Below, one piece after another: positions 10,101-54,337 of a DNA stretch of 64,000 nt (positions are counted from its first letter, which is position 1; each line of letters starts with the position of its first letter). The notes under the pieces are model-generated. The model saw only the letters and a program-made list of their open reading frames with translations, did no database searches and had not been told where the DNA came from. The stretch is from Candidatus Micrarchaeota archaeon CG1_02_47_40 (GTDB taxonomy: Archaea; Micrarchaeota; Micrarchaeia; Anstonellales; CG1-02-47-40). A program made the translations under genes and the position numbers. Where the stretch lies: NCBI GenBank assembly GCA_001871475.1, contig MNVE01000016.1, forward strand, positions 133,343-197,342. Reading direction: 5' to 3'.

Positions 10101-10692
10101 CAACTCAAAATGGGTTGGAGAAAGCGAGAAAGCGGTTAGGGAGATTTTCCGCAAGGCAAGGACTGCCGCTCCCTGCATCATTTTCATAGATGAGATAGAC
10201 GCCGTAGGAAGCTGGAGGGGCGTTGCGGATGATGCAGGAGGCAGGGTGCGCGAGAGCGTCGTGAATACTTTCTTGACTGAAATGGACGGGCTTACCAATC
10301 TGAAAAACGTGGTGGTGATTGCGGCTACAAACAGGCCGGACATACTTGACCCCGGATTGCTTCGCGCAGGCAGGTTTGACAAGATAATAGAGATGACTGT
10401 GCCTGATGAGAAGACGAGGCACGAAATATTCAAGGTGCACACGAAAAAGATGCCCCTTGCAAAGGATGTGGATTTGGAGGAGCTTTCAAAGAAAACCGAG
10501 GAGAATACCGGAGCGGATATAGAAAATATCTGCAGGGAGGCAGGCATGCATGCAATACGCGAAAATCCGGAGGGCGCAAGCGTAGAAATGAAGCACTTCC
10601 TCTCCGCAATGAAGAGCATACGCCCGACAGTAACGAAGGCGCATGTTGAAAGCATGAAGAAGTTCGCAAAGCAGGACGCGATGTTCAGGTAA
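7150..10692 (+). CDS. cdc48: Cdc48/VCP-like AAA+ ATPase interrupted by an intein in the D2 domain
   Basis: N-domain, D1 ([23 protein letters not shown]) and D2 ([15 protein letters not shown] ... IIFIDEIDA) are present. The extein is 721 aa once the 460 aa insertion is removed. Confidence 0.9.
8725..10104 (+). mobile_element. intein with LAGLIDADG-type homing endonuclease inside cdc48 D2
   Basis: The insertion begins with Cys (CLAPGTPIF) right after ISIKGPEVL and ends with VLHN followed by +1 Ser (SKWVGESEK). Internal LGWFVAEGN and [13 protein letters not shown] are LAGLIDADG-like blocks. Confidence 0.8.
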
Positions 10693-21971: not shown

Positions 21972-22298
21972 TTGCAAACCATGGTAAGCATAAGAAAAAC
22001 CCTCAAATGCTCCTGCGGCACCTACATGAATTTTACTTTTGAGGCGGATATGCCCATTGAGGATTTGACCGTTTCAGGCAAATGCCCCTCCTGCGGGAAA
22101 ACGGTGCAGATAAGCGTCGTTTCGATGGAAGGGGGAAGCGCTGCAGCAGGAGGAAGCGTACAGATCACTGGCACTGTTTCCGAAGCGCTGACGGAAGAGG
22201 GGAAGGGAACTGAAACGCTTGAGCTTGACAATGCGGATTATGAGAGCGTTTCAAATGAGAATGTGGAAAGCGCGCTGAATGAAATGTTTAATCAGTAG
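21972..22298 (+). CDS. zinc-ribbon hypothetical protein
   Basis: CSCGT...CPSCGK, four Cys in a ribbon arrangement. Confidence 0.45.
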   Translation: MQTMVSIRKTLKCSCGTYMNFTFEADMPIEDLTVSGKCPSCGKTVQISVVSMEGGSAAAGGSVQITGTVSEALTEEGKGTETLELDNADYESVSNENVESALNEMFNQ

Positions 22299-23094: not shown

Positions 23095-23139
23095 GATTGT
23101 GCTTTAGAGTTTATAAGTTTTCCTGCCCTAACTCTAAAT

Positions 23140-25134
23140 ATGGGATATGAAAATAAACTGATATGCTTCCTGTTTGCACTTTTGCTTTTTGCGGGTGCGG
23201 TTTGGCCGAATTTCATCTACAACAAGACAATAAACGGAACCGGCGCTGATTTTTCAGAAAAATATGATGTTTTTGAAAATCCTGTAGGGGTGGCTGTGAA
23301 GAACGGAACCGTTTACGTGATTGACTCTGACAGGAGCTACCTTTTCACCATGAGCGGAAATGCGATAGCTTACCGCGTTGGCGGGGAAGGAGCAGATATT
23401 TCAAGCCTCTCCTCTCCAAGGGGGTTTGCATTTGACGGGAATGACATAATAATAAGCGACAGCGGAAACAACAAGCTGAAGCGGCTGCGCTATGGCGCTG
23501 TAACAAGCTTCAACGTGCAGCTTGCAACGTCGTTTGATTCTCCGCGCGGCATCTCTTCTTACGGAAACTCCCTTTACATCGCGGACACCTCAAACGACCG
23601 CATTGTTGTTCTGAAAAAGGTGAATGATGCCTACCAGTTTGACTTTGTATTCGGAAGCAGCGGCTCCTCCGACGGGCAGTTCAATGCGCCTGCAAGCGTG
23701 TTCGCATACGATGGCAAGGTGTATGTGGCTGACAAATACAACAACAAGGTGCAGGTTTTCTCTTTAAACGGGACTTTTGAGCGGAGCATAGGCATAGGAA
23801 AGGGAGGAGTAACGCTTCTTTCTCCAAGCGGCGTTTATGTAAGTGATTTTGTATACGTTGCAGACAGCGGAAACAACCGGGTGGCAGTGTTCACAAAAAC
23901 AGGAGAGCCTGTTGAAACATTCGGCGGGCCTGCAGAAGCGGAGCACATGAAACGGTTTTCAAACCCGCAAGGGGTTTGGGTTGATTCGGGAATGCTCTAC
24001 GTTGCCGATTCTTACAAGGCTCGCGTTCAGGTATTCAAGATAAACATGAGCTCAACCAACGCGGAGGTTGAGGAAAAGATTGCCCAATTGAATGTGAAGC
24101 TTGCGGAAATTGCCTCGCTGGCTGCGTTTGCAAAAACAAATCTTGGCATTTCCACCCCTGCCTCGGCGCTTGCAACCTGCATTGACGGAGTTTCTGCAGT
24201 ATATGAGGAAATGGAATTCACGCAGGCGCTCTCAAAAGCACAAGAATGCAACGAAACGGCTGATAATGAGATTGCCGATATGAAGGCGGCAATCGTAACG
24301 GAAATCCAAAAGAGGATAGGGACGGCGCAAAGCCGGCTTGGCGGATTTGCAGATGAAAATCAAGCGCAGAAAAAAGCAGAGGTGCAGGCGCTTCTGAATT
24401 TGGCTTCTTCAAACGTAAGCGCGGGAAATTATGAAACAGCGCTTCTGAAAATAGGCGAGGCAGACAAGAAGATGGATGGGATGGGGCTTCCGGGAGGCAG
24501 CACGGAAGTGGAGGAGGAAGCTCCAACCGGAACGCAGGACGCGCAAATACTCCTTGCAAGCCTCAACGCCTTAAAAGGGCAGATTTCTTTCATAAAAGCT
24601 GAACTTTTCACTTACGGGATGTTTGATGCAGGAATTGAGAACGCACAGCTTGGCATTTCGCGTGCAGAGATATACATCAGCTCCTCGCAGGCGCAGAAGG
24701 CGGAGGCAGAGCTGAACTCCCTTGAGTCAGCGGTTGTATCTGCAAGAAAAAGCCTCAATGACAGAAAGGAAGCGGTTGCTAATGCAAGCGCGAAGATAAA
24801 TGAAACGGAAAAATACCTGCAGCAGTCGGATAGCGGCTTTTTAGTAACGCCCGACACATCAAGCGCGAAGGCGAGATTGGAGGAAGCAAAAGGGAAGCTT
24901 TACGCCGACCCCAAAGGCGCGGAAACGCTTGCGAAAGAAGCGCAGCTTCTTGCAGGGCAGGCGGAGAACGCGCTTACGCAGGTTAAGATAATTGTAGGTA
25001 TTGGAGTGCTGGCAGTGCTTGCCGGCATTGCGGTGTTTGCGCTCCTTGTCTGGTACGTCTTCAAAAAAAGGAAGGCGGCAAGGGGAAGAATCAATTCCGA
25101 GGAAAGAAAGTGGAAACCCGGGCTGAAAAGGTGA
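23140..25134 (+). CDS. surface protein: signal peptide, NHL-repeat beta-propeller, coiled-coil stalk, C-terminal TM anchor
   Basis: Repeated SPRG(F/I)...D..NN(K/R)(L/V) NHL-like units, then a long helical region. C-terminal IVGIGVLAVLAGIAVFALLVWYVFKKRK. Confidence 0.7.
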   Translation: MGYENKLICFLFALLLFAGAVWPNFIYNKTINGTGADFSEKYDVFENPVGVAVKNGTVYVIDSDRSYLFTMSGNAIAYRVGGEGADISSLSSPRGFAFDGNDIIISDSGNNKLKRLRYGAVTSFNVQLATSFDSPRGISSYGNSLYIADTSNDRIVVLKKVNDAYQFDFVFGSSGSSDGQFNAPASVFAYDGKVYVADKYNNKVQVFSLNGTFERSIGIGKGGVTLLSPSGVYVSDFVYVADSGNNRVAVFTKTGEPVETFGGPAEAEHMKRFSNPQGVWVDSGMLYVADSYKARVQVFKINMSSTNAEVEEKIAQLNVKLAEIASLAAFAKTNLGISTPASALATCIDGVSAVYEEMEFTQALSKAQECNETADNEIADMKAAIVTEIQKRIGTAQSRLGGFADENQAQKKAEVQALLNLASSNVSAGNYETALLKIGEADKKMDGMGLPGGSTEVEEEAPTGTQDAQILLASLNALKGQISFIKAELFTYGMFDAGIENAQLGISRAEIYISSSQAQKAEAELNSLESAVVSARKSLNDRKEAVANASAKINETEKYLQQSDSGFLVTPDTSSAKARLEEAKGKLYADPKGAETLAKEAQLLAGQAENALTQVKIIVGIGVLAVLAGIAVFALLVWYVFKKRKAARGRINSEERKWKPGLKR

Positions 25135-25139
25135 GTTAA

Positions 25140-26144
25140 ATGAAAAAAGTGATTATTGCTGTGCTGATTCTGGCATTCGTATTCGTGCTTGCAGGCTGCC
25201 TCTCGCGCGGCTGCACCTCGGACAAGAATTGCAAGGAATGGCAGCTGTGCGACATGGCAAAAAAGGCGTGCGTGCTGCGCGAAGGGTATTGCACTGCGGA
25301 AGCTGACTGCAATGACACGATGAAAACCTGCGATTTGGAAACCCACCTTTGCGATTACAAAAAAGACAAGTGCAGGACGGATGGGGACTGCGAGGCATGG
25401 CAGGCTTGCAGGGAAGGGGACAGCAGCTGCGTTCCGCGCCTGGGATTCTGCAACTCCGATACGATGTGCGATGGGAATTTTGAATACTGCTCCCCGCTAA
25501 AGCACAAATGCTCGCCCAAACCCGGCAACTGCCTTGACCAGTTTGACTGCGAATCCTGGCAGTTCTGCAACACGGAAGAAAAAAAATGCGCGCCCCTCTC
25601 GGGAAAATGCGCACTGGAAATAGACTGCAGAGGATGGCAGACATGCGATACGCAAAATCACACCTGTATATTGAGAGTGGGATTCTGCAATAACGATATT
25701 GACTGCCTTGACTGGCAGCAGTGCGACCAGACGCTCAAAAGATGCGTTGTGCGCCCCACAAACTGCGTTGATGACACTGCGTGCAAGGAATGGCAGGTAT
25801 GCAACCCGCAGACAAACAATTGCCAGGCAAAGAACGATTTCTGCGATGATAATGCGAACTGCGATTCCTGGGAGAACTGCGAGCCGAACACGCATTCGTG
25901 CATTCCAAGGGCGGGGTACTGCTCTGACAATTCCGTTTGCGCCCCCTGGCAGGTGTGCGATGGCACTTCTCATATGTGCGTTTTGCGCGGCGGCTACTGC
26001 GGAAAGAATTCAGATTGCAGCTACAATGAGAGGTGCGAGTTTTCAGCAGGCACAAGCCAGTACAGGTGCGTTTCAGCTGTGTGCGGAGGGGATGCGGACT
26101 GCCCCGGCTCAACCTGCGATATGGAAAGGCATGTGTGTAGATGA
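25140..26144 (+). CDS. cysteine-rich tandem-repeat lipoprotein-like secreted protein (12 x ~26 aa, 4 Cys each)
   Basis: MKKVIIAVLILAFVFVLAGC lipobox-like leader. Repeats follow C-x4-5-DC-x2-WQ-x-C(D/N)-x5-6-C-x5-6. Confidence 0.65.
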   Translation: MKKVIIAVLILAFVFVLAGCLSRGCTSDKNCKEWQLCDMAKKACVLREGYCTAEADCNDTMKTCDLETHLCDYKKDKCRTDGDCEAWQACREGDSSCVPRLGFCNSDTMCDGNFEYCSPLKHKCSPKPGNCLDQFDCESWQFCNTEEKKCAPLSGKCALEIDCRGWQTCDTQNHTCILRVGFCNNDIDCLDWQQCDQTLKRCVVRPTNCVDDTACKEWQVCNPQTNNCQAKNDFCDDNANCDSWENCEPNTHSCIPRAGYCSDNSVCAPWQVCDGTSHMCVLRGGYCGKNSDCSYNERCEFSAGTSQYRCVSAVCGGDADCPGSTCDMERHVCR

Positions 26145-26147
26145 AAA

Positions 26148-27464
26148 TCAGATAGACACAAACTCGCGTAAAAGTTTTTGTCCGTCTGTTGACACGTCAA
26201 AAAAAAGCCAGCGTATTTCAGGAGATGGAACATAATAACGCGCCCTGCCTTCAACTCTAGACAGCCTAATACAATTATATTGGCGAAGAGTCGTTATTGC
26301 GTTTGAGATATTTTGGGGCTTCATTCTCAGTGCTTCGGATATGAGTTTATTCGTCGTTTCTTTTTTGATGATTATTTGCCTTAAAACTTTTATTTCCGTT
26401 TGATTTAATTTTGAAACATACCGCTCCTCGGCAATTCTTCTTAAAGCCCGCCCCATTGGCACAGGAGTAAGTTTAATCGGCTTGTTCTCAACGCTTAGCG
26501 CGGTTATTGCTGTAGTAAGCGACTTAAGTATCGCCCTAACGTTGCCCGAATAAAGCTTGTAAAGCGTTTCGATTGCTTCGTCTGAGTAGGGTTTCTCCGA
26601 GGTCATTTTACCTCCTATTGACAATTCCTTGATTCGCTTGTCTAAGATGCTGCAGATATCCTGAAATGAGAAAGACTCCATGTGTACTGGAGGACCGTAG
26701 AAGATGTCATCAACACGGGGAACTTTTTGGAGCATATCCGAAACGGTCATATCTCCGACGAAAATGAAGTGGACCCCCTCGGTCTGCAAGAAATCCCGTA
26801 TTCCATTAAAGAGCTTGATAATATTTTTTTCATCTTTGTCGTTCAATAATTCAAGATTATTATAGTGAATGGTCATCCCAACATAACCTATTTTTTTGAG
26901 ATTTTCAACGATTTCCTTTAGCGTGTCTTTCATGACGAAACTGTTGAATGCGGGGGCACCGTAAGAGATGCCTTTCTCGCCGCCTACGCTTATTGTTGCG
27001 ACTCCGCCGCTAATTCCTTGGCTTGAGCCGCGATAAGTTCCAAAGTATACATCTAATTTTTCCAAAAATTCTTTGTCGAATTTATTTCGAATGCCCTTAA
27101 TGCGATTTATGCTTGTATAAACTGCTGAGAGGGTGACCTGCATAAAATCTTCCGAATTCCAGTCATGCTGAATCCCTATCTCCGCTATTGTTGTAAAGTG
27201 ATTCTTTTCGAATGCTAATGCCCGTACATAGTTCACGAATGTGGTTTTGCCTACGCCTATATTTCCATTCACAAGTATTCTGCTTTGGGAATTGTTGAGG
27301 ATAATGTTATTGATTTGTTTTATCTCTTTTTCTCTGCCGAAAAAAGTTTGTATGGATAACTCGCCTCCGAATGCCTGAAGAGGGTCTGGCGAGAAAGGAT
27401 TTCCCCTCAACCCGTAATTAGCCCATAAACCGTATTGTTCACATTCGTTAGTGTTTATAGCCAT
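26148..27464 (-). CDS. Arch_ATPase-like (PF01637-type) P-loop NTPase with C-terminal wHTH
   Basis: FFGREKEIKQI signature, Walker A NGNIGVGKTT, Walker B FIFVGD. Located on a low-GC islet. Confidence 0.6.
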   Translation of the reverse strand: MAINTNECEQYGLWANYGLRGNPFSPDPLQAFGGELSIQTFFGREKEIKQINNIILNNSQSRILVNGNIGVGKTTFVNYVRALAFEKNHFTTIAEIGIQHDWNSEDFMQVTLSAVYTSINRIKGIRNKFDKEFLEKLDVYFGTYRGSSQGISGGVATISVGGEKGISYGAPAFNSFVMKDTLKEIVENLKKIGYVGMTIHYNNLELLNDKDEKNIIKLFNGIRDFLQTEGVHFIFVGDMTVSDMLQKVPRVDDIFYGPPVHMESFSFQDICSILDKRIKELSIGGKMTSEKPYSDEAIETLYKLYSGNVRAILKSLTTAITALSVENKPIKLTPVPMGRALRRIAEERYVSKLNQTEIKVLRQIIIKKETTNKLISEALRMKPQNISNAITTLRQYNCIRLSRVEGRARYYVPSPEIRWLFFDVSTDGQKLLREFVSI

Positions 27465-27592
27465 AATTATCGCCTTTTGATATTATAATGGCAAATCTAT
27501 TTAAATCTTTCTTTTAACCATATGTATTGTAAAATAACATTATAATTGGTATAACCGTTTAATAAAATGAAATATGAATGCTCGTAAAAGTT

Positions 27593-28648
27593 TCATTCAG
27601 CAGGATAAGACCCCAGCACACGCAGTGATTCGGATATTCTCCTTATTTTTTTCAGCACCCTCTCCACCTTGGGCTCGCATTCGTGCCCCTCAAAATCAAC
27701 AAAGAAGAGGTATTCCCATTTCCTTCCCTTGTACGGGCGCGACTCCACCTTAAGCAGGTTTATCTTCTCCTTTGCAAACACCCCAAGAGTTTGGTAAAGT
27801 GTGCCTGGCTTGTGAGGCAGGGTGAATAAGAGGGAGGTTTTGTCTTTGCCTGTCTTTTGGCAGGGGCTCCTCCCAACGATTATAAACCTCGTTGTATTGT
27901 CCTCGTAATCGCCTATATTGCGCTTGAGCACTTCAAGACTGAAAAGCTCCGCCGCAAGCTCGCTCCCTATGCTCGCACTCTGCCTGTCCAGCTTCCTGCA
28001 GGCAGAAGCGGTGCTTGCACAATCCTGCGTTAGGAATTTGTTCCTTTCTATGAATTTTGAGCACTGCAAAAGCGCGTTTGGATGCGCGATGATTGTTTTC
28101 ACCCTGCTGTGCGCCACTCCTTTCTTCGCAAGCAGGCAGTGGCGTATGGGCAATACCAGCTCTCCGACAATGTATCCGTTTGCCCTGTACAGATTATCAA
28201 GGGTTTCCCCTACGCTGCCTCCGCTGGAGTTCTCCACAGGGACGATGATTAGGGACACTTCCCCCTCCTCAAAAGAGGCAAAAGCGGAAGAAATCGTCCT
28301 GTGCGAAATAAGCTCTGTATTTTGCCCGAAATAGCTTAATGCCGCTATGTGCGAATACGTGCCCTCGGGCCCCAAATAGCCGACACGCACCTTTTTTTGC
28401 AATCCCCTGCAGGCGGAGATGATTTGAGTGTAGATTGAGGCGACATCCCCCTTGGGCAGGAGTTTTGCCCTTGAGGAAACCTTCCTTATCACTTCCCGCT
28501 CGCGGGATGTTTGGATTACTTCGGTTTTCCCTGCCTCGCTTTTTTTCTTCCCTATCTCCTTTGCTGCTTTTGCGCGCTCATCCAAGAGAGAAACTACCTT
28601 CGCGTCTATTGCGTCTATCTTCTTTCTTTCCTTCTCAAGATTTTCCAT
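27593..28648 (-). CDS. pheA: chorismate mutase / prephenate dehydratase (P-protein) with ACT domain
   Basis: N-terminal CM helix (ERKKIDAIDAKVVSLLDERAKAAKEI), PDT domain (RVGYLGPEGTYSH), C-terminal ACT. Confidence 0.85.
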   Translation of the reverse strand: MENLEKERKKIDAIDAKVVSLLDERAKAAKEIGKKKSEAGKTEVIQTSREREVIRKVSSRAKLLPKGDVASIYTQIISACRGLQKKVRVGYLGPEGTYSHIAALSYFGQNTELISHRTISSAFASFEEGEVSLIIVPVENSSGGSVGETLDNLYRANGYIVGELVLPIRHCLLAKKGVAHSRVKTIIAHPNALLQCSKFIERNKFLTQDCASTASACRKLDRQSASIGSELAAELFSLEVLKRNIGDYEDNTTRFIIVGRSPCQKTGKDKTSLLFTLPHKPGTLYQTLGVFAKEKINLLKVESRPYKGRKWEYLFFVDFEGHECEPKVERVLKKIRRISESLRVLGSYPAE

Positions 28649-29660
28649 GCTTTTGCCCTCTTTTGCCGGCTTTTATTTTCCCTTCTGCCAGCATCCCGTC
28701 CAGTATCACGCAGGCGGCTGCCGCCCCCACTACCGGCGCGGCGCGCAGTGCAATGCAGGCATCATGCCTTCCTTCTATTTTTATTTTCGCATTCTTCTTC
28801 GTTTTCAGGTTCACGGTGTCCTGCTCTATTGCGATTGAGGCAGTGGGTTTTATTTTTACCGTAAATTCTATCGGCATTCCGGTTGAGATGCCCCCCAATA
28901 TTCCGCCTGAATTGTTTGGTCTGGCGCGCACATTCCCCTTCGCATCAAAGTAATACGCGTCGTTGTTTTGGGAGCCGTAATTTTTGGTTGAGCCGAATTC
29001 CACTCCTTTTACCGCAGGTATGCAAAACATCGCATGCGCCAGGAGCGCATCAAGCGCGCCAAAATGCGGTGTGCCTATCCCTGCAGGAACCCCCTCAATT
29101 CTGCAAAAAACCTCTCCGGAAACTGAATCCCCCTTTTCCTTTGCCTCCTGAATAATGAAAGCGAATTCTCTCTTTTCCCTGCTGCCGCCAACTCTTATTA
29201 TTTCCGAGGCGATGCTTATTCCCTTCTCAAAAAGCATTTTCTTTGCAAGCGCGCCTGCGACCATCCATCCCGCAGTAAGCCTTCCTGAAAAAATCCCCCC
29301 TCCCCGATAATCATTAAACCCCTTGTAGCGCACGTGCGCCGTATAATCAGCATGTGAGGGGCGGGGGGTGTCTTTTATTTTCTTATAAGGGGATGAATCA
29401 ACATCCTCATTCCTTATTATCGCGCAGATTGGCGCGCCGCTTGCGCGTCCCTGAAAGATGCCGGAGAGAAATTCCATCCCGTCTTTCTCATTTCTTCCTG
29501 TGGCAAGCCTGCTTGCGCCTGGCCTTCTCTTTTCAAGCTCTTTTTGTATTTCCCCTTCATTTATTTGCACTCCCGGGGGGCAGCCTTCTATGAGCACGCC
29601 TATGCATTTTCCGTGAGACTCCCCGAAAAGGGAGATGCGATAGTTTTTTCCAAGTGGCAT
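28635..29660 (-). CDS. aroC: chorismate synthase
   Basis: FGESHGKCIGVLIEGCPPG, RPGASRL, GGGIFSGR. Overlaps pheA by 14 nt. Confidence 0.9.
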   Translation of the reverse strand: MPLGKNYRISLFGESHGKCIGVLIEGCPPGVQINEGEIQKELEKRRPGASRLATGRNEKDGMEFLSGIFQGRASGAPICAIIRNEDVDSSPYKKIKDTPRPSHADYTAHVRYKGFNDYRGGGIFSGRLTAGWMVAGALAKKMLFEKGISIASEIIRVGGSREKREFAFIIQEAKEKGDSVSGEVFCRIEGVPAGIGTPHFGALDALLAHAMFCIPAVKGVEFGSTKNYGSQNNDAYYFDAKGNVRARPNNSGGILGGISTGMPIEFTVKIKPTASIAIEQDTVNLKTKKNAKIKIEGRHDACIALRAAPVVGAAAACVILDGMLAEGKIKAGKRGQKHGKS

Positions 29661-29750: not shown

Positions 29751-30848
29751 ATGTACGAAAAAACTGATGAATTCGGCCCGGAGAAAGTAATTGAAGTGCA
29801 TGATGCAAAATCCGGCTTGCACGCTGTTTGCGTAATAGACAATACCGCAATAGGCATAGGAAAGGGAGGGATACGGCTTGTTCCGGATATTACGATTAAT
29901 GAGGTAGCTGCGCTTGCTCGCGCCATGACCTGGAAGAATGCGCTTGCGGGAATTCCGTTTGGAGGGGCGAAAAGCGGCATAAAGGCAGACCCAAAAACTG
30001 CCGATAAAGAGAAACTGATGAGGGCGTTTGCGAGTGCATTGAAATGCGTGATTCCTTCTCTTTACTGCGCAGGACCTGATATGAACACCACTGAAAGGGA
30101 GATGGGTTTTCTTGCTGATGAATTAGGGGATATGAAAGCCGCTACGGGAAAGCCTGCGAGTATGGGGGGCTTGCCGCACGAGCTTGGCTCAACCGGCTTT
30201 GGGGTGGCGCAGTCAGCATTTGAGGCATTGGCGCACAAGGAAATGGATGTGAATGGGGTGAGGATTGCCATTGAAGGATTTGGGAATGTGGGCACGTTTA
30301 CTATGAAACATTTGTGCGAAAAGGGAGCGAAAGTGATTGCTGTTTCGGATTCACGCGGAGCGGTTTATGATGAGCGCGGGCTTGATTATGATGCACTCCT
30401 GAAGGCAAAGGCGGAAAAAGGGACAGTGACTGCATACGGGAATGGGGCAAAAATTCTTGATTCTGCCTCGCTTTTCTCCCTTCAGTGCGATATGTTAATA
30501 CCTGGAGCTCGCCCGAATGTTATTACTGCTGTAAATGCGCCTTTGGTAAAGGCAAAAATAATAGTGGAGGCGGCAAACATACCGATGAGTGTTGAGGTGG
30601 AAAAATCCCTTTCCTCCCGCGGAATCCTGATGATACCTGATTTTGTGGCAAACGCAGGAGGGGTAATTTCCTCCTATGTGGAGTATATTGGAGGCAGTGA
30701 ATCCGAAATGTTCGCTATGGTGCAGGAGAAAATCACCTCAAACACGCGCCTCGTGCTGGAAAATACGATAAACAACGACACACGGGCTGCCGCGTTGAAA
30801 ATAGCAAAGGAAAGAGTAATTGGTGCAATGAATGAGAAGAAGAGCTAA
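29751..30848 (+). CDS. gdhA: Glu/Leu/Phe/Val-family amino acid dehydrogenase (glutamate dehydrogenase-like)
   Basis: GIGKGGIRLVPD, FGGAKSGIKADP and GFGNVG (Rossmann). Confidence 0.8.
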   Translation: MYEKTDEFGPEKVIEVHDAKSGLHAVCVIDNTAIGIGKGGIRLVPDITINEVAALARAMTWKNALAGIPFGGAKSGIKADPKTADKEKLMRAFASALKCVIPSLYCAGPDMNTTEREMGFLADELGDMKAATGKPASMGGLPHELGSTGFGVAQSAFEALAHKEMDVNGVRIAIEGFGNVGTFTMKHLCEKGAKVIAVSDSRGAVYDERGLDYDALLKAKAEKGTVTAYGNGAKILDSASLFSLQCDMLIPGARPNVITAVNAPLVKAKIIVEAANIPMSVEVEKSLSSRGILMIPDFVANAGGVISSYVEYIGGSESEMFAMVQEKITSNTRLVLENTINNDTRAAALKIAKERVIGAMNEKKS

Positions 30849-30851
30849 TTT

Positions 30852-33791
30852 TTATATGTAGTAATTGCAGCCGTCCTCTTCTCCTCCCCCTCCTGCATTC
30901 AAATCCACTACAATCGTTTTCTCGCATATTGGGGATGCCGGATTTGCTACTCTTGCAGTATAAGTATTTGGCTGGGGATAGACGCAAACATTTTCACCAA
31001 AGCAGGAATTCCCCTCGCACGCGAGCTGATGCGTCGTATCCCCTTCATTCCCGCAGGAGAAATCTATTATTTGAGGCGGGGTGAAAAGGGAGTAGAGCAC
31101 GGACGCATCGCTGAAATCCAGCGATGGCGCCCTTGGGGAGCTTGGCAGGATTATAAAGCACGTTTGCTGTGTGGAGCTTCCCACAAGCACCTGCGTGCTG
31201 TTGAGATTGTTGGTCTCGTCTATTTCATCTATTAAATTCTGCGGGTCGGCTTCCATCTGGAGCGAATTCACTCCTATGAAATTGTCCGAAAGCTGAAAAG
31301 AATCGTAATTGTAAGTGTGCGACTCGTCCCTTGCAAGCCCGCCGGTGTAATTGAGCGTTGCGCCCCATTCCCCTCCCTGCCCGCCGCCGCTTAAGGAAGA
31401 CGCAAGGGCTGTGTTTGCCCCTGCCGGAATGTCCTGGCAGCCGATGTTTGAAACCTCAACTGTCAATGTGAATGTGTCTCCTGAAATGGGCATGATGGGG
31501 GAGTATTCATAACTGCTTATTATCAGCTCCGGTTTGTCTGTCACCTCAAAAGAATCCGAATCAACGTTGTCAAACTCGTTTGACTCGTAAATCGCATTAT
31601 TCACGTCTGCGGTGGCGGTCATCGTGTATGTGCCCTCGCCACCGATTGTGTAACTAAACAAATAATCCGGAGTTCCGCTTCCCGCAATTACCGGCTGGGT
31701 TGTCTGCTGGGAGTAGGAGGAAATCAACCCGGTGGGTTTTGCGACGGTGAATGTGCTCAAGAAAGGCGCATTCGTATCCGCCTCCCCGTCGTTTATCACA
31801 TAAAAGCCCACCTCTATCGTATCCCCAGGACAGATATATGGAGGAACATTCGCTGGAATGACCTGCGGGATGAGGTTCGGCAAATTTCCGGTTGGGGGGA
31901 TTGAAACGAAGCTGCCATCCCAGGCATTGTCATTCTCGTTGCTTTCGGAAACTTCCAGATTGCAGTCGGTAAAAACATTGACTTCGTTTTCACCTGCGGG
32001 AAGCTGGATTGGAAGGGCGAAGACGAGGGCTTGGCTTTCCCCGGACGCAAGCCCGGTTAAGTCCATCTCCTGCGTCTGGACGCTTCCTGATGGGGAAGTC
32101 AGGGTAAGGCGGGTGCAGAAAGTCTCCCCGACGTTTTCAATTCCGTTGTTTTCAACAGTCGCGGTTATCTGGGGACTCTGCCCCACCTCTGGGCTTTCCG
32201 GCAGGAGGACGCTTGTGATGCGCAGGTTTTTGCCCTGCACGAGTTGGCTTACGGTGAATGTTCCGCTCTGCTCGTTGTTGTTTTCATGGATTCCCTCTGC
32301 AATTACTCCGTTTGGCGCTGGAAGGCAGTCAGCCTTTATTCTCCACGTGTGCTCCGTTTCCGGTGCGAAATTAACAGTGTAATCAAAATCAACATCCGCC
32401 TGCGCATTTGGGGCAAGCAAAGAAGCAATTGCGAAAGCAGGGGTTTGCTGAACATCATCTATGTAAAGGCAGGTTTGAAAAGTTCCACTCGTTGCAGCAG
32501 AGCCTTGGTTTTTCACCTGCCCGTCAAAGTGAAGCGTGCTTCCCTGCGCCGGCGCGGTTGTGATGGGACCGGCATTCTGCACTATTAAGTCCGGCTGCTG
32601 GACGGGAGTGACTATCACGTTTTCAATCACAAGAGGCTGTAAGAGGGTTGGCGTTGGGATGTTTCCGCTGCAGACAATCCCGTCCGTTTCAAGCGCAAGG
32701 GAGATGGCGACGGTTCCAATGAATGCATTATTCGGGGCGGTAAGGGTTCCAGTGAATTGCTGGGAAGAGCCTGCATTTATCCAGGAGGAAGGCAAGCCTG
32801 AAAGTGAAAATGAAAAGCCGTTGTTTGCCGAAATGCCGGTAAGCCTTATCTTCCTCGGCTCGCTTGCCTGGCTGTTTATTAGGGTGAAGGTGACTGGAAT
32901 TGATGCGCCCGCATTCATGTTTACGGTTCCGGTCGGATTTGTGATTGCCGCGGTTGCGCCTACTGCCGGGTCGCGGACGTGAAGGGTGATGGAGGGAGTG
33001 TATTGGGTGGTGTGCGGAATCTGGCTTGCCGGCTGGCTTGAGATTGGAGGATTTGAATAAACGTATTTTATGAGTTCGGAAAAGGATTGTTTGTTTGCGT
33101 CTAGCGGTTCGACTATACCCTTGCAGTTGTTTGTTTGAAGTTTTGCTGTGAATTGAGGATTCGAAGGCGCGCTATAATCTTGGGTTGAGAGTGCGTTTTG
33201 AGGAAAGGTATAGATGGTAGGGCTTCCTGAAACCGATATTTCGGTACTTCCGGTGCAGATTATGCCTGCTTTTGCGGCTCCGTCCTGGCGGCTTTGAGCA
33301 TTTATGACGTAATTAACATCTCTGTTTGCATTAGTAAAAACTTGATTCGCAAGCGGGGAAACGAGCGTCTGGGGACCCACTTGGGGAAAAAAACTGTCTG
33401 TTGACTCCTGTATTTCTATGTTCGCTAGATTCGAACCCCATGATGGAGGGAATGATGAGGGCAGCCTGTTTGGTGCAACTACTGAAAAGTCATTTAAGTT
33501 GGCGACTGGCGAGTCGAGAGATTGCACTGCCTGCGCGGATATTTCTCCAGGACAGACATACGCGCCGTTTGGAAGGTCGGCTTGGGAAACCCCCGAAGAG
33601 AGCACTACCTCATCCGTTGAAACCTGAAGGGAGAGGGAATGTGCTATGTCTGCTTCGTAGGTTTCCCACACGTATCCAAGGGAACGCGAAGAGGAAAACA
33701 AAGCCGTTTCAGGTTCTATTGAGGTAGCGGCGTGCAGTGTTGCCGCGAGAAGAACAAACAGAAAAACGCCGTTAATTTTCATCAATCTCAC
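30852..33791 (-). CDS. large secreted surface protein with multiple CARDB-like beta domains
   Basis: Signal peptide MRLMKINGVFLFVLLAATLHAA. Recurrent ...V.NNG/N.G... blocks typical of CARDB. Ser/Thr/Asn-rich. 979 aa. Confidence 0.6.
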   Translation of the reverse strand: MRLMKINGVFLFVLLAATLHAATSIEPETALFSSSRSLGYVWETYEADIAHSLSLQVSTDEVVLSSGVSQADLPNGAYVCPGEISAQAVQSLDSPVANLNDFSVVAPNRLPSSFPPSWGSNLANIEIQESTDSFFPQVGPQTLVSPLANQVFTNANRDVNYVINAQSRQDGAAKAGIICTGSTEISVSGSPTIYTFPQNALSTQDYSAPSNPQFTAKLQTNNCKGIVEPLDANKQSFSELIKYVYSNPPISSQPASQIPHTTQYTPSITLHVRDPAVGATAAITNPTGTVNMNAGASIPVTFTLINSQASEPRKIRLTGISANNGFSFSLSGLPSSWINAGSSQQFTGTLTAPNNAFIGTVAISLALETDGIVCSGNIPTPTLLQPLVIENVIVTPVQQPDLIVQNAGPITTAPAQGSTLHFDGQVKNQGSAATSGTFQTCLYIDDVQQTPAFAIASLLAPNAQADVDFDYTVNFAPETEHTWRIKADCLPAPNGVIAEGIHENNNEQSGTFTVSQLVQGKNLRITSVLLPESPEVGQSPQITATVENNGIENVGETFCTRLTLTSPSGSVQTQEMDLTGLASGESQALVFALPIQLPAGENEVNVFTDCNLEVSESNENDNAWDGSFVSIPPTGNLPNLIPQVIPANVPPYICPGDTIEVGFYVINDGEADTNAPFLSTFTVAKPTGLISSYSQQTTQPVIAGSGTPDYLFSYTIGGEGTYTMTATADVNNAIYESNEFDNVDSDSFEVTDKPELIISSYEYSPIMPISGDTFTLTVEVSNIGCQDIPAGANTALASSLSGGGQGGEWGATLNYTGGLARDESHTYNYDSFQLSDNFIGVNSLQMEADPQNLIDEIDETNNLNSTQVLVGSSTQQTCFIILPSSPRAPSLDFSDASVLYSLFTPPQIIDFSCGNEGDTTHQLACEGNSCFGENVCVYPQPNTYTARVANPASPICEKTIVVDLNAGGGGEEDGCNYYI

Positions 33792-35332
33792 TTCACATTA
33801 AAGGTCACTCCAACCCTGAAAAGGTTTGATGACGGAAGCTCAATTCCATACTCCATGTTTGAAGGGGTTTTTATGTAGTCTGCATTCAAGCTTACTCCGT
33901 ATTTTGAGTTAAGCTCAAGTGAGAGCGATTTGTTTTTGTTATTCGGGTCAAAGCCTGCGAACATCCTTATTTTCTCAAAATGCGGAACCTTCTTTGAAAT
34001 CAGTCCAACCTCGGCAAGACGGGTGGTTTTTCCAAAGCTTTCCTGCAGAGAAAAACTGCCCGCCAATGCGATTGCAGGCACACCGAGTTTGTCTTCGGGC
34101 AGAGAATACCGCGACTGGTATTCCCCTTTGCCCGAAAGCCCATGGGAGCCTGACAGCTGGACGTTTCCAAGCCCTAATGGAAGATTTAGAGCGGAATCCA
34201 GTTTAAGACGAATATCTGCCTTGTTCTCGCGGAGATAATCGTGCCTTGCGACTACCGTGCCTGCAATGACGCCGGGCGCGTCCCAAATGAGGAAGTGGGT
34301 GCCGACGCCAACTCCGAGGCTGGAAAGAAGAGGCTGTGAAACTGTTTTTGAGGCAAAAGTGCCGTCGTCATTTCTTTCCCACTGGCGGCAACTGGAGTCG
34401 CCGAATTTTAGTTCCACGTTAAGGAAATCCTTGCCAGTCAGGTAATATTGCGTGTTCACTTCCTTAAGGAAGGCATTTCGTATCTCTTTTGCATTCGCAA
34501 GCGCCAGAAATTCCGAGCCTGCGTGTTCGGAAAGCATTTCGGATGCCTTTTTGAAATCGCCGGACTGGATGGCACTTATAAAGTCGCTCTGTGTGTGTCC
34601 GTTGGAGAGGAGTTGCCCCCACATCACATCGGAACTGCCAAGACCGCCGAGAAAAGCCGCCATCTGCCCTGAATCCTTCCCGGAAAGTCCGTCTGAGAGA
34701 AGATTCAGGAAAGCAACTCCGGTATTCATTGATGAGAAAGTAACTGTGTAGAAGAATTGTGTCGGCTGGAATTGCGGGCTGATTTGCTGCACAAAATCAG
34801 CTGAAGGGTGGAAAGAGGGAATTTCCGCAAGGGGCGGGGCTTTTATCTTGCGCAAACCGAAGGTTGCGCCTGAAGCTGTAGTCGAATTCAAGTTTTGTTT
34901 TTTTGAGAAGACGCTCCTTAAGGTGTAGGCATTGATAAGTCCGCAGGCATAGCTTGCAATGTCCTTTGTTTCCCTTTTTTCGGAAGAAGCGGTGAATTCT
35001 TCAAATGTTTTGCGGTAAACGCCCAAAAGAGCCGCCGCTTGCAGGGACTTTAGAAAGCCCTCGCTTAACGCCGTTTCCGTGAAGGGCTTTGCCTCTGCGA
35101 TGGTTTTGTAGCCGCTTTTCCCAAAAAGGAAGCGCATTGCCAAGATGGCGCTCTTTTTGTCCTCAAGATTAACCGCTTGCTTCGCGAGAAAAAGAACCGC
35201 ATCGGTGTCTGGGGCTTTTTTCAGCAGTTTGAACAGCCTTTCCGCCTCTTCCTGCTTCCGGCTGGCGATGGCTGAAAAAAACTCATCTGCAACCCCTTGG
35301 GCGTTTATTTGTTTGGGCGGCATAAACATCAC
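33788..35332 (-). CDS. hypothetical protein, helical N-half and beta-rich C-half
   Basis: Translationally coupled (4-nt overlaps) to both neighbouring giant genes. Confidence 0.5.
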   Translation of the reverse strand: MMFMPPKQINAQGVADEFFSAIASRKQEEAERLFKLLKKAPDTDAVLFLAKQAVNLEDKKSAILAMRFLFGKSGYKTIAEAKPFTETALSEGFLKSLQAAALLGVYRKTFEEFTASSEKRETKDIASYACGLINAYTLRSVFSKKQNLNSTTASGATFGLRKIKAPPLAEIPSFHPSADFVQQISPQFQPTQFFYTVTFSSMNTGVAFLNLLSDGLSGKDSGQMAAFLGGLGSSDVMWGQLLSNGHTQSDFISAIQSGDFKKASEMLSEHAGSEFLALANAKEIRNAFLKEVNTQYYLTGKDFLNVELKFGDSSCRQWERNDDGTFASKTVSQPLLSSLGVGVGTHFLIWDAPGVIAGTVVARHDYLRENKADIRLKLDSALNLPLGLGNVQLSGSHGLSGKGEYQSRYSLPEDKLGVPAIALAGSFSLQESFGKTTRLAEVGLISKKVPHFEKIRMFAGFDPNNKNKSLSLELNSKYGVSLNADYIKTPSNMEYGIELPSSNLFRVGVTFNVK

Positions 35333-38300
35333 TCTCCTGAAAACACCGGTACGTAAAGCGCTGGCTTAACTGCATTCAGCGACATGCCGGATGCGAATTC
35401 TTCGTTTTTCTTTGTTCCCCAGACGATTATGCTGTTGTCTTTCTCGTATTTGCCGGCTATAAGCTCTCCTCGGAGGGAGGCGCTCGCCAGCTGGCCTTGT
35501 TGCATAAACTTCAGTTTTGATTCTTCCTCTTTCTGCTCGCCGATTTTCCCTATGTCGGAAGGCAGGATTCCGGAATAGGTGCCAATGGTTACAGGCGGCG
35601 GCGAGCCTTCTTTGCATTCCTTATACACTGCCCTGCCTCCCTTCCATTCACCATAAACCAGCTTTCCCTCCTCGTTGGTCCTTAGGATGACCCCGCCGCT
35701 TTTCCCCTCGGTATCGGTTTTTAGAATGGTTTCTCTTGGAACAGGCGTCAGCATGCCGGCTCTTTCGCCATTCAGGTCGGTCAGATAAACCGGTTCGTCT
35801 GCCTTCTCCTGCGAAAGCACGTAGTAATGCATTTTCGTTCCTTCAGGCACGAATGAGAATCTGTCATTTGCATCCGTTCGATAGGCAAACATTGAGGAAC
35901 CGGTAAAATCTATCTCTCCCTTGACATCATGTTTTGCATCCACTCCGAACTGTTTGACATCAGACGTGGTTTTGACATTGTCGTGCCGCGGAATCTGGAC
36001 TTCGTAAACATTTACGACCTCAATTATCGCTTCCTGCTGCACGGTTTGCGCATTCGGATAAAGAGTGCGGTTGCTTGCTGTCGCAGCTATTTTCACGAAG
36101 CCCTCGTTTTCTGTTGGAATTGGCACTTGCGCAGTTCCATCAGAAGAAAGCTGTGCGGGAATGTTTTCCTTTCCCTCAATGAGATTGTATACGCCGTCTT
36201 TTGCTGCGGAGAAATAGAGGGAATATTTCGCTTCTGTTGAGCTCTTTTTCTCTTCCCCAATAGGCGCGCCGGCATCTGCCGCCAGTGAAGCTTTGAGAGA
36301 TGCGCTATAATCGCTTCCGATAAGCACTTTCCCCTGCGCCTCTATCTCCATCGCCAGCGTTTCAAGAGCCTTCTTCTCAACCGCCCCTCTCTCCGGCGCA
36401 ACCCTGCTTGAAATCTGCCGCAGGGGGTTGGTCAGCTCCTTCAGCTTCGTTATCTCCGCATCATTCAAACCCAGCTCTGCCTTCTTTCCGTCAATAAACT
36501 TCCTGTTGTCATAGCCTCCGTAGAGGATTGGCTGGAGGACGTTAAGCACGCCTTCAGCTTTGTCCCCAAATTCTTCCTTAATATCTCCGACAACCTTCAC
36601 GTGCTGTGCGTCCGTTCCGAACCTTGTTGAGCCCGTGCCTGTTATGGTTACTCCTGCAGCCAGATGCGCAAGCAGTATCGCTGATGGGATTCCGCCGGTA
36701 TTCTCAAGCCCTTTAATTATTGCTGCTTTCTTAACCTCGTCTCCGTTTGCAACTTTATCAATTGCCTGCTCCAAACTTATGTCCTTATATTCATTATACT
36801 TCGCCATCACCTTGTCCGCCATTATCTTTGTATCTGTCAGCTTGTCCCCCCTGTACCGGTTATAGACAAGCCTCTCTTCTTGGCTCCATGCATCCGTTAC
36901 CTTCACCCAAGCGCCTGCCTTGTTGGCTGCCTCCTCTTCGGAGGCGAAGGTTCCAAGCTCCTTCCCGCTGACATCGTAATAATTGCCCGTTGTCCTGTGA
37001 ACGTCCTTGTAAGTGCTCCCAAACTCCGCCGCCTTCCCTTCTCCCATTCTCCCCTGCGCCCTTGCAAGCTCTGCGCAGGCAGAGGTCTGCAGCCCCCTCA
37101 TCATATATTCCATGAAAAGAAGAGTGTTGCTAACTTTGAGTTTGCTGTCTTCCTGCAAAAGCACGTCCTTGTACTGCTCCATTATGCTCTTGTTGGCTTC
37201 GTCTGCCCTGACGAACATCTGCTTTTCTTCATCATAATGGAAGGTAAGGGCAAAGCACCAGTAGAAATAGTAGTAATCCGCACTGCGGGAAAGGTAGGCT
37301 TCCGGATTTTCAAGAATCGCCTTTATGAGAAGCTCTTCCCCTGGCTTTTGGAATATTTCGGCTATGTGCGCAGGCGCATTCATTTTATCAAAGCCGACAG
37401 CAAAAGGATAACCCGAAAGATGAATCTCCGCTGAATCTGCATAAAAACCGTATTTGTCCGCTGGAACAGCCGTGCCGGTGATTTGTGCAGGGGATTCCGC
37501 CTTTGCCGTCGCTTCTTCCTGCGGGATTTCAAGCTCTCTGCCTTTGTTGTTTGTCAGCAATAGGTAGTAAATGCCCCTTTCCTCCCTGCCGGCAGCCGAA
37601 AGCCCGTATTGTGAGAGCCTCTGCAGGGTTGCCAAGTCCGCCTGCCCCCTTCCTTGTTTTGCACCATACTGAAGCTCAACTTTGCTTCTTTTTCCGTCAA
37701 GCACCTCTTGCAGGAGCCTGCGCCCCTCATCGCTCATTTTCAAGTCATTCCCAACAAGTTCGTAGGGGGTTGCCGCAGCCTTTTGAGCTTCCTCTGCAAC
37801 AGGCGGCGTTTTTTCCAAAACAGGCGTTTGACCCGCCTGGAGTTCTGGCTCTTTCTCAAGCTTTCCATAAGCCTTTGCAAATTCCTCGCCCAGCTTGTAA
37901 TCCAGAAATGCCTGCATCCTGCTGTTTATCAGGGCGTCCTGGCTTCTGCCAATCAATGCATTGCCCTCTTTTGAAAGATGATAATTTTTCAGCGCGTCCT
38001 GGACGATTTTCCTTTCATTCTCGCTCACAGGCGCAAGAAATTTCACGTAAGCGAGCTGTATTTCGTTCATCAGCTGATTTTGTTTCTCCTGCGCAAGTCC
38101 ATTGTAGAGAGCTTTGTCGGATTCATTTAGGCGCCCCGCAAAATCCGGCTTTGCGTTCTCGGTCGCGGGAAGCCCAATCAGCGCTTTTGAAAGCTCATCA
38201 TATGCTGTTTGGTAAAACTCCCTCTTATCGTTTATCCCGAAAGCGTTTGCATAGTCGCGCACCCTGTTTGCGGCGTCTGCGTCAAGCTGCGCCCCGTCAG

Positions 38301-39204
38301 GGGCGGTTAAGTAATTGCCAAACCCCCCCGCGTATGAGTAGCTGCCAAGGATGTTTGCTACCGTGCATAGCTCTATCGAGAGATAATATGCGTTCATGCC
38401 TTGCGGAGATTTTGAGAATTCCTGCGCGGCATCCTTGAGCCGGTCAGAAAACAACAGCAGGTATCTTGCAAAAGCCGCCGCTTCCCCCCTGTTGGCTTGG
38501 GGTATGCCGTTCATTCCTTGGGCATGTGCCTGGAAATCCCGAACCGCTTGGACGCCGTGGTGGCTTTTAAGGAATTCCGCGAAAAGCTGCGAATATTCCT
38601 GCCTTCGCTCAAGAAGGGAAAGCGAAGCGGAGCCTATCTTGGGACCTTCTTCCTTTTTTTCTTGCTGTGCCGCTGCTGGCTCTGCCGGCAACTTTCTTTG
38701 TTGGGAAAGAGACTGCTCTAATTGATATCTCATTTGCTGCTCTTGAGTTAGGAAAAGATTTTTTTGGAGTTCGCTTATTTTCTTTTGCTGTCCTTCAGTT
38801 TGGGTTGGCGCCAGAAAGAGGGAGTCTGTGCTTAAGGGAGGGCGTTTTTTCCCTAATCTGACTCCGAGTGGGGTTTTTTGCAGTTCCTCCTTTTGCGGAG
38901 CCTGCGGTGTTTTTTTCTTTTCTTTTGTATCTTTTATTCCGTTAAGAATTCCGAGGAGATGAAGGGTCTGCCCTTCAATCTTTATCGCCTTGTTGAACTG
39001 CCCGTCACGGAGCTGTTCGTTGAGGTCGGATATTATCTCTTTCCCCTTCTCTTGACCTAGAAGCTCCTTGAGGATGCCCTTGGACTCTTCCGTCAGGGAA
39101 TAGCTGTTAATCTGCCACTTGTTCTTTTTCAGGATGCCCTGCTCAACAAATTCTTTGAGCTTTTGCTTGTCAAGCTCCTCTGCACGCTTAACCTTCTGCT
39201 CCAA
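35329..39204 (-). CDS. giant hypothetical protein (1291 aa), largely helical/coiled-coil
   Basis: Long uninterrupted ORF. All plus-strand ORFs in the span are short, Cys/Pro-rich and look like antisense. Confidence 0.55.
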   Translation of the reverse strand: MEQKVKRAEELDKQKLKEFVEQGILKKNKWQINSYSLTEESKGILKELLGQEKGKEIISDLNEQLRDGQFNKAIKIEGQTLHLLGILNGIKDTKEKKKTPQAPQKEELQKTPLGVRLGKKRPPLSTDSLFLAPTQTEGQQKKISELQKNLFLTQEQQMRYQLEQSLSQQRKLPAEPAAAQQEKKEEGPKIGSASLSLLERRQEYSQLFAEFLKSHHGVQAVRDFQAHAQGMNGIPQANRGEAAAFARYLLLFSDRLKDAAQEFSKSPQGMNAYYLSIELCTVANILGSYSYAGGFGNYLTAPDGAQLDADAANRVRDYANAFGINDKREFYQTAYDELSKALIGLPATENAKPDFAGRLNESDKALYNGLAQEKQNQLMNEIQLAYVKFLAPVSENERKIVQDALKNYHLSKEGNALIGRSQDALINSRMQAFLDYKLGEEFAKAYGKLEKEPELQAGQTPVLEKTPPVAEEAQKAAATPYELVGNDLKMSDEGRRLLQEVLDGKRSKVELQYGAKQGRGQADLATLQRLSQYGLSAAGREERGIYYLLLTNNKGRELEIPQEEATAKAESPAQITGTAVPADKYGFYADSAEIHLSGYPFAVGFDKMNAPAHIAEIFQKPGEELLIKAILENPEAYLSRSADYYYFYWCFALTFHYDEEKQMFVRADEANKSIMEQYKDVLLQEDSKLKVSNTLLFMEYMMRGLQTSACAELARAQGRMGEGKAAEFGSTYKDVHRTTGNYYDVSGKELGTFASEEEAANKAGAWVKVTDAWSQEERLVYNRYRGDKLTDTKIMADKVMAKYNEYKDISLEQAIDKVANGDEVKKAAIIKGLENTGGIPSAILLAHLAAGVTITGTGSTRFGTDAQHVKVVGDIKEEFGDKAEGVLNVLQPILYGGYDNRKFIDGKKAELGLNDAEITKLKELTNPLRQISSRVAPERGAVEKKALETLAMEIEAQGKVLIGSDYSASLKASLAADAGAPIGEEKKSSTEAKYSLYFSAAKDGVYNLIEGKENIPAQLSSDGTAQVPIPTENEGFVKIAATASNRTLYPNAQTVQQEAIIEVVNVYEVQIPRHDNVKTTSDVKQFGVDAKHDVKGEIDFTGSSMFAYRTDANDRFSFVPEGTKMHYYVLSQEKADEPVYLTDLNGERAGMLTPVPRETILKTDTEGKSGGVILRTNEEGKLVYGEWKGGRAVYKECKEGSPPPVTIGTYSGILPSDIGKIGEQKEEESKLKFMQQGQLASASLRGELIAGKYEKDNSIIVWGTKKNEEFASGMSLNAVKPALYVPVFSGE

Positions 39205-54324: not shown

Positions 54325-54337
54325 CAGCCTCCTTAAA

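Follow-up and report, generated by a model that had tools for sequence, protein, structure and literature searches.

The stretch of DNA analysed here, 64,000 nucleotides of contig MNVE01000016.1 from Candidatus Micrarchaeota archaeon CG1_02_47_40 (hereafter the window), encodes on its forward strand (25140..26144) a 334-residue, cysteine-rich protein with the leader of a lipoprotein, followed by a tandem array of short repeats that accounts for ~98% of the mature chain. On present evidence this is a real and well-conserved protein, typical of the Micrarchaeota, which sequence profiles place in a catalogued but uncharacterised family, DUF5885; the gene just upstream, for a surface protein with an NHL β-propeller, is its operon partner in the window and is linked to it facultatively only, and the whole does not, so far, amount to a novel type of system. 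Of the roles proposed for the cysteine-rich protein, that of a lipid-anchored, disulfide-stapled stalk, spacer or scaffold of the cell envelope is the one that we consider, on balance, somewhat probable.

The repeat array, its family and its predicted fold

The original prediction, made from the letters of the window, had described a protein of about 334 residues built from twelve four-cysteine repeats of approximately 26 residues, and the cysteine spacing, the list of repeats and AlphaFold models all agree with that description. There are 49 cysteines in the protein (14.7% of its residues), of which one, Cys20, belongs to the lipobox and the other 48 to the repeats (aa 25-334; 25212..26141, +), where they are spaced 6, 6, 7, 7 almost without a break, giving a unit of C-x5-C-x5-C-x6-C-x6. 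A conserved W-Q had also been noted, which is largely correct though not universal: W-[QE] stands ahead of the third cysteine in eight of the twelve repeats, and repeats 2, 4, 11 and 12 are variants that lack it. As the protein has no other domain, the array itself would be its functional part.

The leader, MKKVIIAVLILAFVFVLAGC, has the features expected of a lipoprotein signal peptide (25140-25199, +) in both its sequence and its hydropathy, i.e., a basic n-region (MKK), a hydrophobic h-region (VIIAVLILAFVFV) and, at its end, L-A-G-C (25188-25199), which conforms to the lipobox consensus [LVI][ASTVI][GAS]C and makes Cys20 the predicted lipidated N-terminus. This leader had been noted from the start, and it has held up well, since a lipobox is kept in essentially all orthologues; the conservation supports the view of the product as a secreted, lipobox-bearing array of disulfide type. 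A bacterial-style lipobox in a DPANN archaeon is not anomalous, because lipoproteins exported via Sec are predicted to be prevalent in DPANN archaea, where a candidate lipidation enzyme family, AliA, has been found (2025 survey, PMC12462473).

The repeat pattern is well beyond chance as judged from the sequences, since ~47 orthologous genes, at 35-52% identity, keep it down to the single residue, and the invariant cysteine columns at those ~47 loci rule out a spurious open reading frame (ORF). Tandem Repeats Finder detected no tandem repeat at the DNA level in the cysteine-rich gene, which argues that the array is old, and a profile of the repeat run against all ORFs of the window gave no second match, the gene being present there as a single copy.

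It had been thought that the repeat could not be assigned to a known family, and here the prediction was overturned. Pfam DUF5885 (PF19232) recognises the window protein in four stretches, at E = 2.5e-10 and with 40.7 bits where its gathering score is 33.2, and it recognises all 20 of the orthologues searched as well (E <= 0.01, the best at 5.7e-17); in two relatives (P0001 and P0002) the database had already annotated the family. The scores are modest for a model of 265 positions, and the Micrarchaeota proteins are therefore best regarded as peripheral members. A search of a paper library for DUF5885 or PF19232 found no paper. The outcome that was to count against novelty, assignment to a family that is already well characterised (EGF or Dickkopf, for example), did not arise: DUF5885 is itself uncharacterised, and no EGF family model in Pfam matched the window protein at E <= 1. 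Family and PDB sequence searches likewise gave no match of the cysteine-rich protein to metallothioneins, ferredoxins or zinc ribbons, a search of PDB sequences with the family profile returned noise only (YTH1 zinc fingers at E = 0.84), and a pattern search of IMG/VR contigs found no relative of the protein. A preprint of 2026 that deals with 'cysteine-rich repeats' and horizontal gene transfer was considered and set aside as irrelevant; it concerns another (fungal) repeat, with Micrarchaeota appearing only via flanking regions.

A word-indexed homologue search retrieved no more than 2-3 matches, whether the query was the protein alone or a profile of 20 sequences, and for this reason the alignments supplied to AlphaFold2 were shallow (3-4 rows). 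The full-length model nevertheless has a mean predicted local distance difference test score (pLDDT) of 81.8, with a predicted TM-score (pTM) of 0.39, and a fragment comprising repeats 5-7 reached a pLDDT of 89.6 and a pTM of 0.60. Each modelled repeat consists of a 3-10 turn and then a β-hairpin, regular along the array, and in the models the repeats are stacked into an elongated array, with the qualification that at a full-length pTM of 0.39 neither the geometry between repeats nor the rigidity of the whole is fixed by the model.

Foldseek found no significant relative of the models among the solved structures of the PDB. The top PDB rows for the full model were the cysteine-rich region of the Entamoeba Gal/GalNAc lectin, megalin and uromodulin, all at TM-scores <= 0.14, and EGF arrays matched only at E > 0.05 with TM-scores < 0.2. 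For the three-repeat fragment the best PDB rows were the cysteine-rich domains of Draxin (E = 0.15) and Dkk4 (E = 0.53), with a further weak alignment to the Ascaris carboxypeptidase inhibitor (E >= 0.15), and single repeats could be superposed on squash trypsin inhibitors at ~1 Å over 24 residues. It is from these alignments that one could read the protein as a tethered row of inhibitory modules akin to knottins or Dickkopf, which would act on the host as, for example, protease inhibitors or receptor antagonists. All such structure matches are, however, insignificant (E >= 0.15, and E > 1 for EETI-II), the knot of a knottin takes six cysteines whereas the repeat has four, and the Dickkopf_N model (PF04706) has no match in the window protein and reaches only three of the 20 orthologues, at E >= 0.0029 and below its 25-bit threshold; we consider an inhibitor array very improbable. 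Membership of the cysteine-rich protein in the EGF-like, Dickkopf/colipase, knottin or TraA families was also tried, on cysteine count, profile scores or Foldseek, and was rejected for all four.

Searches against predicted viral structures were a different matter. On 3Di comparison, cysteine-rich membrane proteins of Pithovirus, Cedratvirus and Pandoravirus (e.g., W5S5X2, an 'EGF-like domain protein') matched at E-values of 1e-9 to 7e-12 with a probability of 1.0 and 18-25% identity, and at TM-scores <= 0.2, which are low because both sides are long flexible arrays.

Orthologues in the Micrarchaeota and more distant relatives

Orthologues were sought by a pattern search through GTDB in which a single genome stood for each species, and the GFCNND-type motif of repeat 7 proved specific enough for the purpose. 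Relatives with 35-52% identity were found at at least 50 loci, and every label pointed to the Micrarchaeota (the phylum itself, the Micrarchaeia or one of the phylum's genera); Ca. Fermentimicrarchaeum limneticum Sv326, whose genome is complete, is among them. Identical copies of the window DNA are present in two metagenome assemblies in ENA. In every full-length orthologue the leader ends in x-G-C, mostly L-[SA]-G-C, the variants being LSGC (14), LAGC (7), [LI]FGC (7) and others. The number of repeats is fixed at 12 or 10, and the number of cysteines in the mature chain is 48 in 27 proteins, 44 in two, 40 in ten and 47 in one, i.e., a multiple of four in 39 of 40; the sole protein with 47 comes from a contig of a metagenome-assembled genome (MAG) whose name states a coverage of ~0.9. 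Such multiples of four are what would be expected if all cysteines were paired in disulfides within their own domains.

The same counts bear on the suggestion that the protein could be an extracellular thiol protein, with its cysteines kept reduced in anoxic habitats, that binds metals or takes part in redox chemistry. The cysteine content of 14.7%, the acidic predicted pI of 4.8 and the groundwater or sediment source of many of the MAGs, as given in their record titles, are in keeping with it. Against it stand the regular fours and the complete absence of CxxC, CxC and CC motifs from the window protein and 44 orthologues, the latter disfavouring zinc, iron-sulfur or metallothionein chemistry, and also the compact hairpin modules of the AlphaFold models, which are as in disulfide-rich domains, the failure of metallothionein, ferredoxin and zinc-ribbon families to match, and the genes for DsbA-like proteins found near many of the orthologues (see below). 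We would put the chances of this explanation as low as those of the inhibitor array.

Conservation within the array is tied to position. Leaving out the cysteines, repeats at the same position in different species have a mean identity of 0.34 vs 0.14 for different repeats within one protein, from which it follows that the array is old and that every repeat has an identity of its own. Two patches stand out among 20 orthologues. The best conserved of all non-cysteine residues open repeat 7, as G-F-C-N-N-D-[IL]-D-C (aa 181-189; 25680..25706, +), in which F182, N185 and D186 are invariant and G181 nearly so, and which is a candidate binding site for a partner or an ion, as judged from its conservation. 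The second patch, H-x-C-x-P-x-P-G-x-C, spans the junction of repeats 4 and 5 (aa 122-131; 25503..25532, +), with an invariant G129 and a nearly invariant H122 and P126.

The prediction had suggested that the repeat be looked for in other proteomes, and it is present both in the Micrarchaeota species above (at least 50) and in probable bacterial lipoproteins. An exhaustive profile search produced 405 cluster representatives at E <= 1e-3, and the bacterial proteins among them, with profile E-values down to 1e-105, have a lipobox, the same 26-residue repeat, here as C-x2-x-DC-x2-W[QE]-x-C-x3-H-x-C-x3-PG-x, and then a globular C-terminal domain. In P0003 and P0026 this domain is an RCC1 β-propeller, and in many others it is a domain of ~300 residues without annotation. 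Also matched by the profile were archaeal-looking proteins anchored by a C-terminal transmembrane segment, and others of ~2000 residues that carry thrombospondin type-3 repeats.

As an aside on the ~300-residue domain, it is common to P0006, P0011, P0014-P0016, P0018, P0020, P0022-P0024, P0040, P0042 and P0060, and it terminates in a conserved ...[LIV]-[VIT]-[TSR]-G-P, possibly a sorting signal. The metagenome proteins that carry it are high in Ala and Gly and are probably from high-GC bacteria.

The NHL protein and the gene neighbourhood

The gene immediately upstream (23140..25134, +) encodes a 664-residue protein that had been read as a membrane-anchored NHL-repeat protein, a reading that closer analysis confirmed. 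It begins with a hydrophobic signal sequence (aa 1-27, 23140..23220, with a hydropathy segment at aa 3-27), which is followed by six NHL repeats that are predicted to form a six-bladed β-propeller (aa ~40-305, 23257..24054), then by a region rich in Ala, Glu, Leu, Lys and Gln (aa ~306-615, 24055..24984), and it ends in a transmembrane helix (aa ~617-641) and a basic, predicted cytoplasmic tail (aa 642-664; 24988..25131 for the two together), all on the forward strand. The Pfam NHL model (PF01436) matches at 102.6 bits in six stretches, well past its gathering score of 20 bits, and further six-bladed propeller families match more weakly. The region of ~310 residues beyond the propeller contains just five Pro and, based on its composition, is probably an α-helical stalk, with a coiled coil as a putative form, and hydropathy marks a C-terminal hydrophobic segment at aa 610-643, after which comes KKRKAARGR. 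This layout is kept in seven orthologues, with the C-terminal transmembrane segment and basic tail in all of them; the propeller is the best-conserved part (30% identity among orthologues), and the stalk has diverged to 18% identity yet is always present.

Only 5 nt (25135-25139) separate the two genes, with the ATG of the cysteine-rich gene starting 6 nt past the last base of the NHL stop codon, in good agreement with the original prediction that one lies just downstream of the other. A GGTGA (25130..25134, +) that overlaps the NHL stop codon, 5 nt before that ATG, resembles a Shine-Dalgarno sequence and may serve as one. A TATA-box-like element, TTTATAAG (23110..23117, +), recognised by comparison with the archaeal promoter consensus, lies ~23 nt 5' of the NHL ATG and is a candidate promoter for both genes; no such box was found before the cysteine-rich gene. 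Based on the short gap, the single TATA-like box and the GGTGA, the two genes look co-transcribed in the window genome.

How widely the pairing holds is another question. Among the ~40 other species with enough flanking sequence, five (L009, L011, L019, L033 and L042) have an NHL gene upstream of the cysteine-rich gene on the same strand, and in two more (L025 and L030) it lies a few kilobases off on the opposite strand. In four of the five linked species a gene for a protein of ~210-260 residues with two transmembrane segments and a Ser/Ala-rich ectodomain is situated between the two (L009 7154-7933; L011 6479-7177; L019 4674-5318; L033 7343-7975); it has no Pfam match and could encode a third part of the module. 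The NHL-linked loci are spread over several deep branches of the 12-repeat clade in a neighbour-joining tree, and because of this the distribution fits an ancestral operon of NHL and cysteine-rich genes that was lost repeatedly in most lineages. Across the family the pairing is only partly conserved, being seen in the window and in five other species and absent from more than 30, and it does not look like a general property. Elsewhere the upstream neighbour varies: throughout the 10-repeat clade it is a HAD-like hydrolase, and in other species a β-propeller lipoprotein of the PF09826 family, a DUF4139 protein or a divergent gene. The PF09826 protein (~750 residues, with a lipobox of its own, LLLLGC or LLFAGC) is found directly upstream in one subclade (L004 5595-7898; L005 5632-7875; L008 5622-7886), in the position that the NHL gene holds in the window. 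A reciprocal scan of metagenomes with the NHL alignment gave 80 loci, all for generic NHL propellers; in a single case the match reached the stalk, and a cysteine-rich neighbour was seen in no case, which says little on the pairing either way.

These observations are what the original prediction's account of the two proteins as a two-component device for recognition or adhesion has to draw on. On that account, taken here to concern a host, an NHL propeller on a stalk and a cysteine-rich rod would bind a ligand on the surface of the host archaeon and attach the cell as an ectosymbiont. Two surface proteins do share one apparent operon, the linkage recurs in five other species, NHL propellers and cysteine-rich arrays are common among binding proteins (the Entamoeba Gal/GalNAc lectin was itself among the top Foldseek rows, though at a TM-score <= 0.14), bacterial homologues have the repeat fused to β-propellers, and Micrarchaeota depend on hosts. 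The difficulty is that most species lack the pairing and that physical contact between the two proteins is presumed. In addition, determinants of host range typically vary in length and sequence, whereas the array has a fixed number of repeats and position-specific conservation, and of the two proteins it is the NHL protein, at 24-30% identity, that changes much the faster, the 35-52% of the cysteine-rich protein being about that of neighbouring enzymes (e.g., the HAD hydrolase and PheA). We consider an adhesion pair possible, but unlikely.

The commonest neighbour of the cysteine-rich gene is a Glu/Leu/Phe/Val dehydrogenase gene, directly downstream at ~30 loci. In the window it is present at 29751..30848 (+), but 3.5 kb of opposite-strand genes (26148..29660, -), for an ATPase_2/AAA_16-like protein, a chorismate mutase/prephenate dehydratase and aroC, come between it and the cysteine-rich gene, which points to a local rearrangement. 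Further along, at 14 loci, a gene for a membrane-anchored DsbA-like protein (PF13462/PF01323, with the motif C-Y-x-C) is located two genes downstream (e.g., L005 10284-11162), and at five loci a membrane fusion protein with a thioredoxin CxxC and conserved cysteines in its transmembrane region is encoded just upstream (e.g., L008 4223-5515); the latter has no Pfam match and, read by eye, appears CcdA/DsbD-like. These thiol oxidoreductases are circumstantial support for disulfide chemistry outside the cytoplasm. In the window itself, the protein with two transmembrane segments, the thioredoxin fusion, the DsbA-like protein, the PF09826 lipoprotein and the DUF4139 protein were all sought and not found.

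Upstream of the pair, the gene order of the window (glmS, a small zinc-ribbon ORF, the HAD hydrolase and the NHL gene) is closest to that of the LFW-35 and RIFCSPHIGHO2 lineages. The small ORF (108 residues, 21972..22298, +) adjoins glmS, has zinc-ribbon-like cysteine pairs (C-S-C-G ... C-P-S-C-G) and no Pfam match, and is kept at the same position in L009 and L011. Elsewhere in the window, a 1180-residue, Cdc48-type double AAA ATPase (7150..10692, +) contains a LAGLIDADG homing-endonuclease domain (aa ~786-854) and, on that account, probably an intein. Two runs of large ORFs lie on the reverse strand. In the first (30852..39204, -), a protein of 979 residues has a signal-like N-terminus as well as four CARDB domains, and after it come ORFs of 514 and 1291 residues; the second (47897..56410, -) has ORFs of 1437, 705 and 690 residues. 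The five without CARDB domains match no Pfam family at E <= 1e-3 and show no clear sign of a signal peptide. No tRNA or tmRNA gene was detected by ARAGORN anywhere in the window.

Proposed role and known systems

The stalk, spacer or scaffold that we favour can be laid out as a series of steps. The cysteine-rich protein would be exported through Sec, and after cleavage at the lipobox its lipid-modified Cys20 would hold it on the outside of the cytoplasmic membrane. Its twelve DUF5885-type modules, each a short turn and a β-hairpin held by two disulfides, would then fold into an elongated array that could act as a stalk, spacer or scaffold of fixed length between the membrane and the S-layer. 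The conserved patches (GFCNNDLDC in repeat 7, and the junction of repeats 4 and 5) would bind one or more conserved partners, for which the protein with the NHL propeller, helical stalk and transmembrane anchor is plausible. The gene, its repeat architecture, its conservation, its family, the predicted fold and the synteny are results of the analysis, and from them we infer lipidation, disulfide bonding, the rigidity of the rod, the envelope-scaffold role and interaction with the NHL protein. What argues for a structural role rather than a variable adhesin is that the number of repeats is fixed, that conservation is specific to position and that the bacterial homologues use the repeat close to the membrane, placing the array between the lipobox and a globular C-terminal domain much as a stalk would be (with the RCC1 propeller of P0003 and P0026 as that domain). 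The single copy in the window and the lack of a repeat at the DNA level point the same way, and the stalk hypothesised for the cysteine-rich repeats of Myxococcus TraA (PMC6372800) offers a precedent.

Several points weigh against a stalk or scaffold. More than 30 species have no NHL gene near the cysteine-rich gene, the dehydrogenase that is the commonest neighbour is uninformative on function, and the adjacency of the DsbA-like gene may be inherited gene order and not a functional link. The pTM of the full-length model, moreover, is as low as 0.39, and a role in the S-layer or envelope is purely a matter of inference, with ligand or host binding also compatible.

A more ambitious version can be drawn from the literature on the Micrarchaeota, in which the anchoring of their S-layer protein has been left open and a separate stalk protein suggested (bioRxiv 10.1101/2021.04.28.441871). 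The NHL-stalk-transmembrane protein and the cysteine-rich rod are candidates for such anchoring components. It is conceivable, if rather doubtful, that the rod is a molecular-ruler scaffold that, with the NHL protein and, in relatives, the protein with two transmembrane segments, anchors and spaces the S-layer or builds an apparatus of host contact; if true, DUF5885 would thereby receive its first assigned function, and the envelope would be of a design that has no described counterpart in other archaea.

Should the protein turn out to be a passive stalk only, the result is a useful annotation rather than new biology. Micrarchaeota and other DPANN archaea depend on surface contacts with their hosts. 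Present in at least 50 Micrarchaeota species, the putative lipid-anchored rod of fixed length gives studies of their envelope a tangible candidate component. It would also offer a first functional handle on DUF5885-type repeats, which are found in bacterial lipoproteins as well, and whose predicted fold has a similar counterpart in the membrane proteins of giant viruses.

Among the closest known systems are the probable bacterial lipoproteins from metagenomes (e.g., P0003, P0014 and P0026), which have a lipobox and then the same 26-residue repeat, but which vary in their number of repeats and carry an RCC1 β-propeller or the ~300-residue domain at their C-termini. The cysteine-rich membrane proteins of giant viruses have in common with the window protein the strong 3Di matches, which compare predicted structures on both sides, and differ from it in having a transmembrane anchor where it has a lipobox. 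Myxococcus TraA, a receptor for outer-membrane exchange, is also a cell-surface protein with short, tandem, cysteine-rich repeats, which have been hypothesised to form a stalk on which a distal domain is displayed (PMC6372800). The window protein has a weak similarity to its model (NF033759, E = 4e-4), but at 19.1 bits against a cutoff of 750, and in the repeat region only, it is not a TraA member; moreover, the repeats of TraA are of ~20 residues and come after a PA14-like variable domain, whereas the window protein has no distal domain, and neither a PA14 domain nor a C-terminal sorting tag (MYXO-CTERM) was found in it.

Also comparable in general design are the eukaryotic EGF-like domains, the cysteine-rich domains of Dickkopf/Draxin and TNFR, and the knottins, which are similar as small, disulfide-stapled β-hairpins that can be concatenated into rods; the weak top rows from the PDB belong to such types. 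An EGF domain has six cysteines per ~40 residues, Dkk has ten, and knottins have six that are knotted. The window repeat, with four per 26 residues, differs from the EGF, Dkk and knottin types and matches none of them significantly in sequence or structure. For the NHL protein a comparison can be made within the archaea, with the SlaB-type S-layer stalk proteins of the Sulfolobales. The likeness lies in the order of parts: like SlaB, the NHL protein has a predicted Sec signal, an extracellular β-domain (in its own case an NHL propeller), a long helical region and a C-terminal transmembrane anchor.

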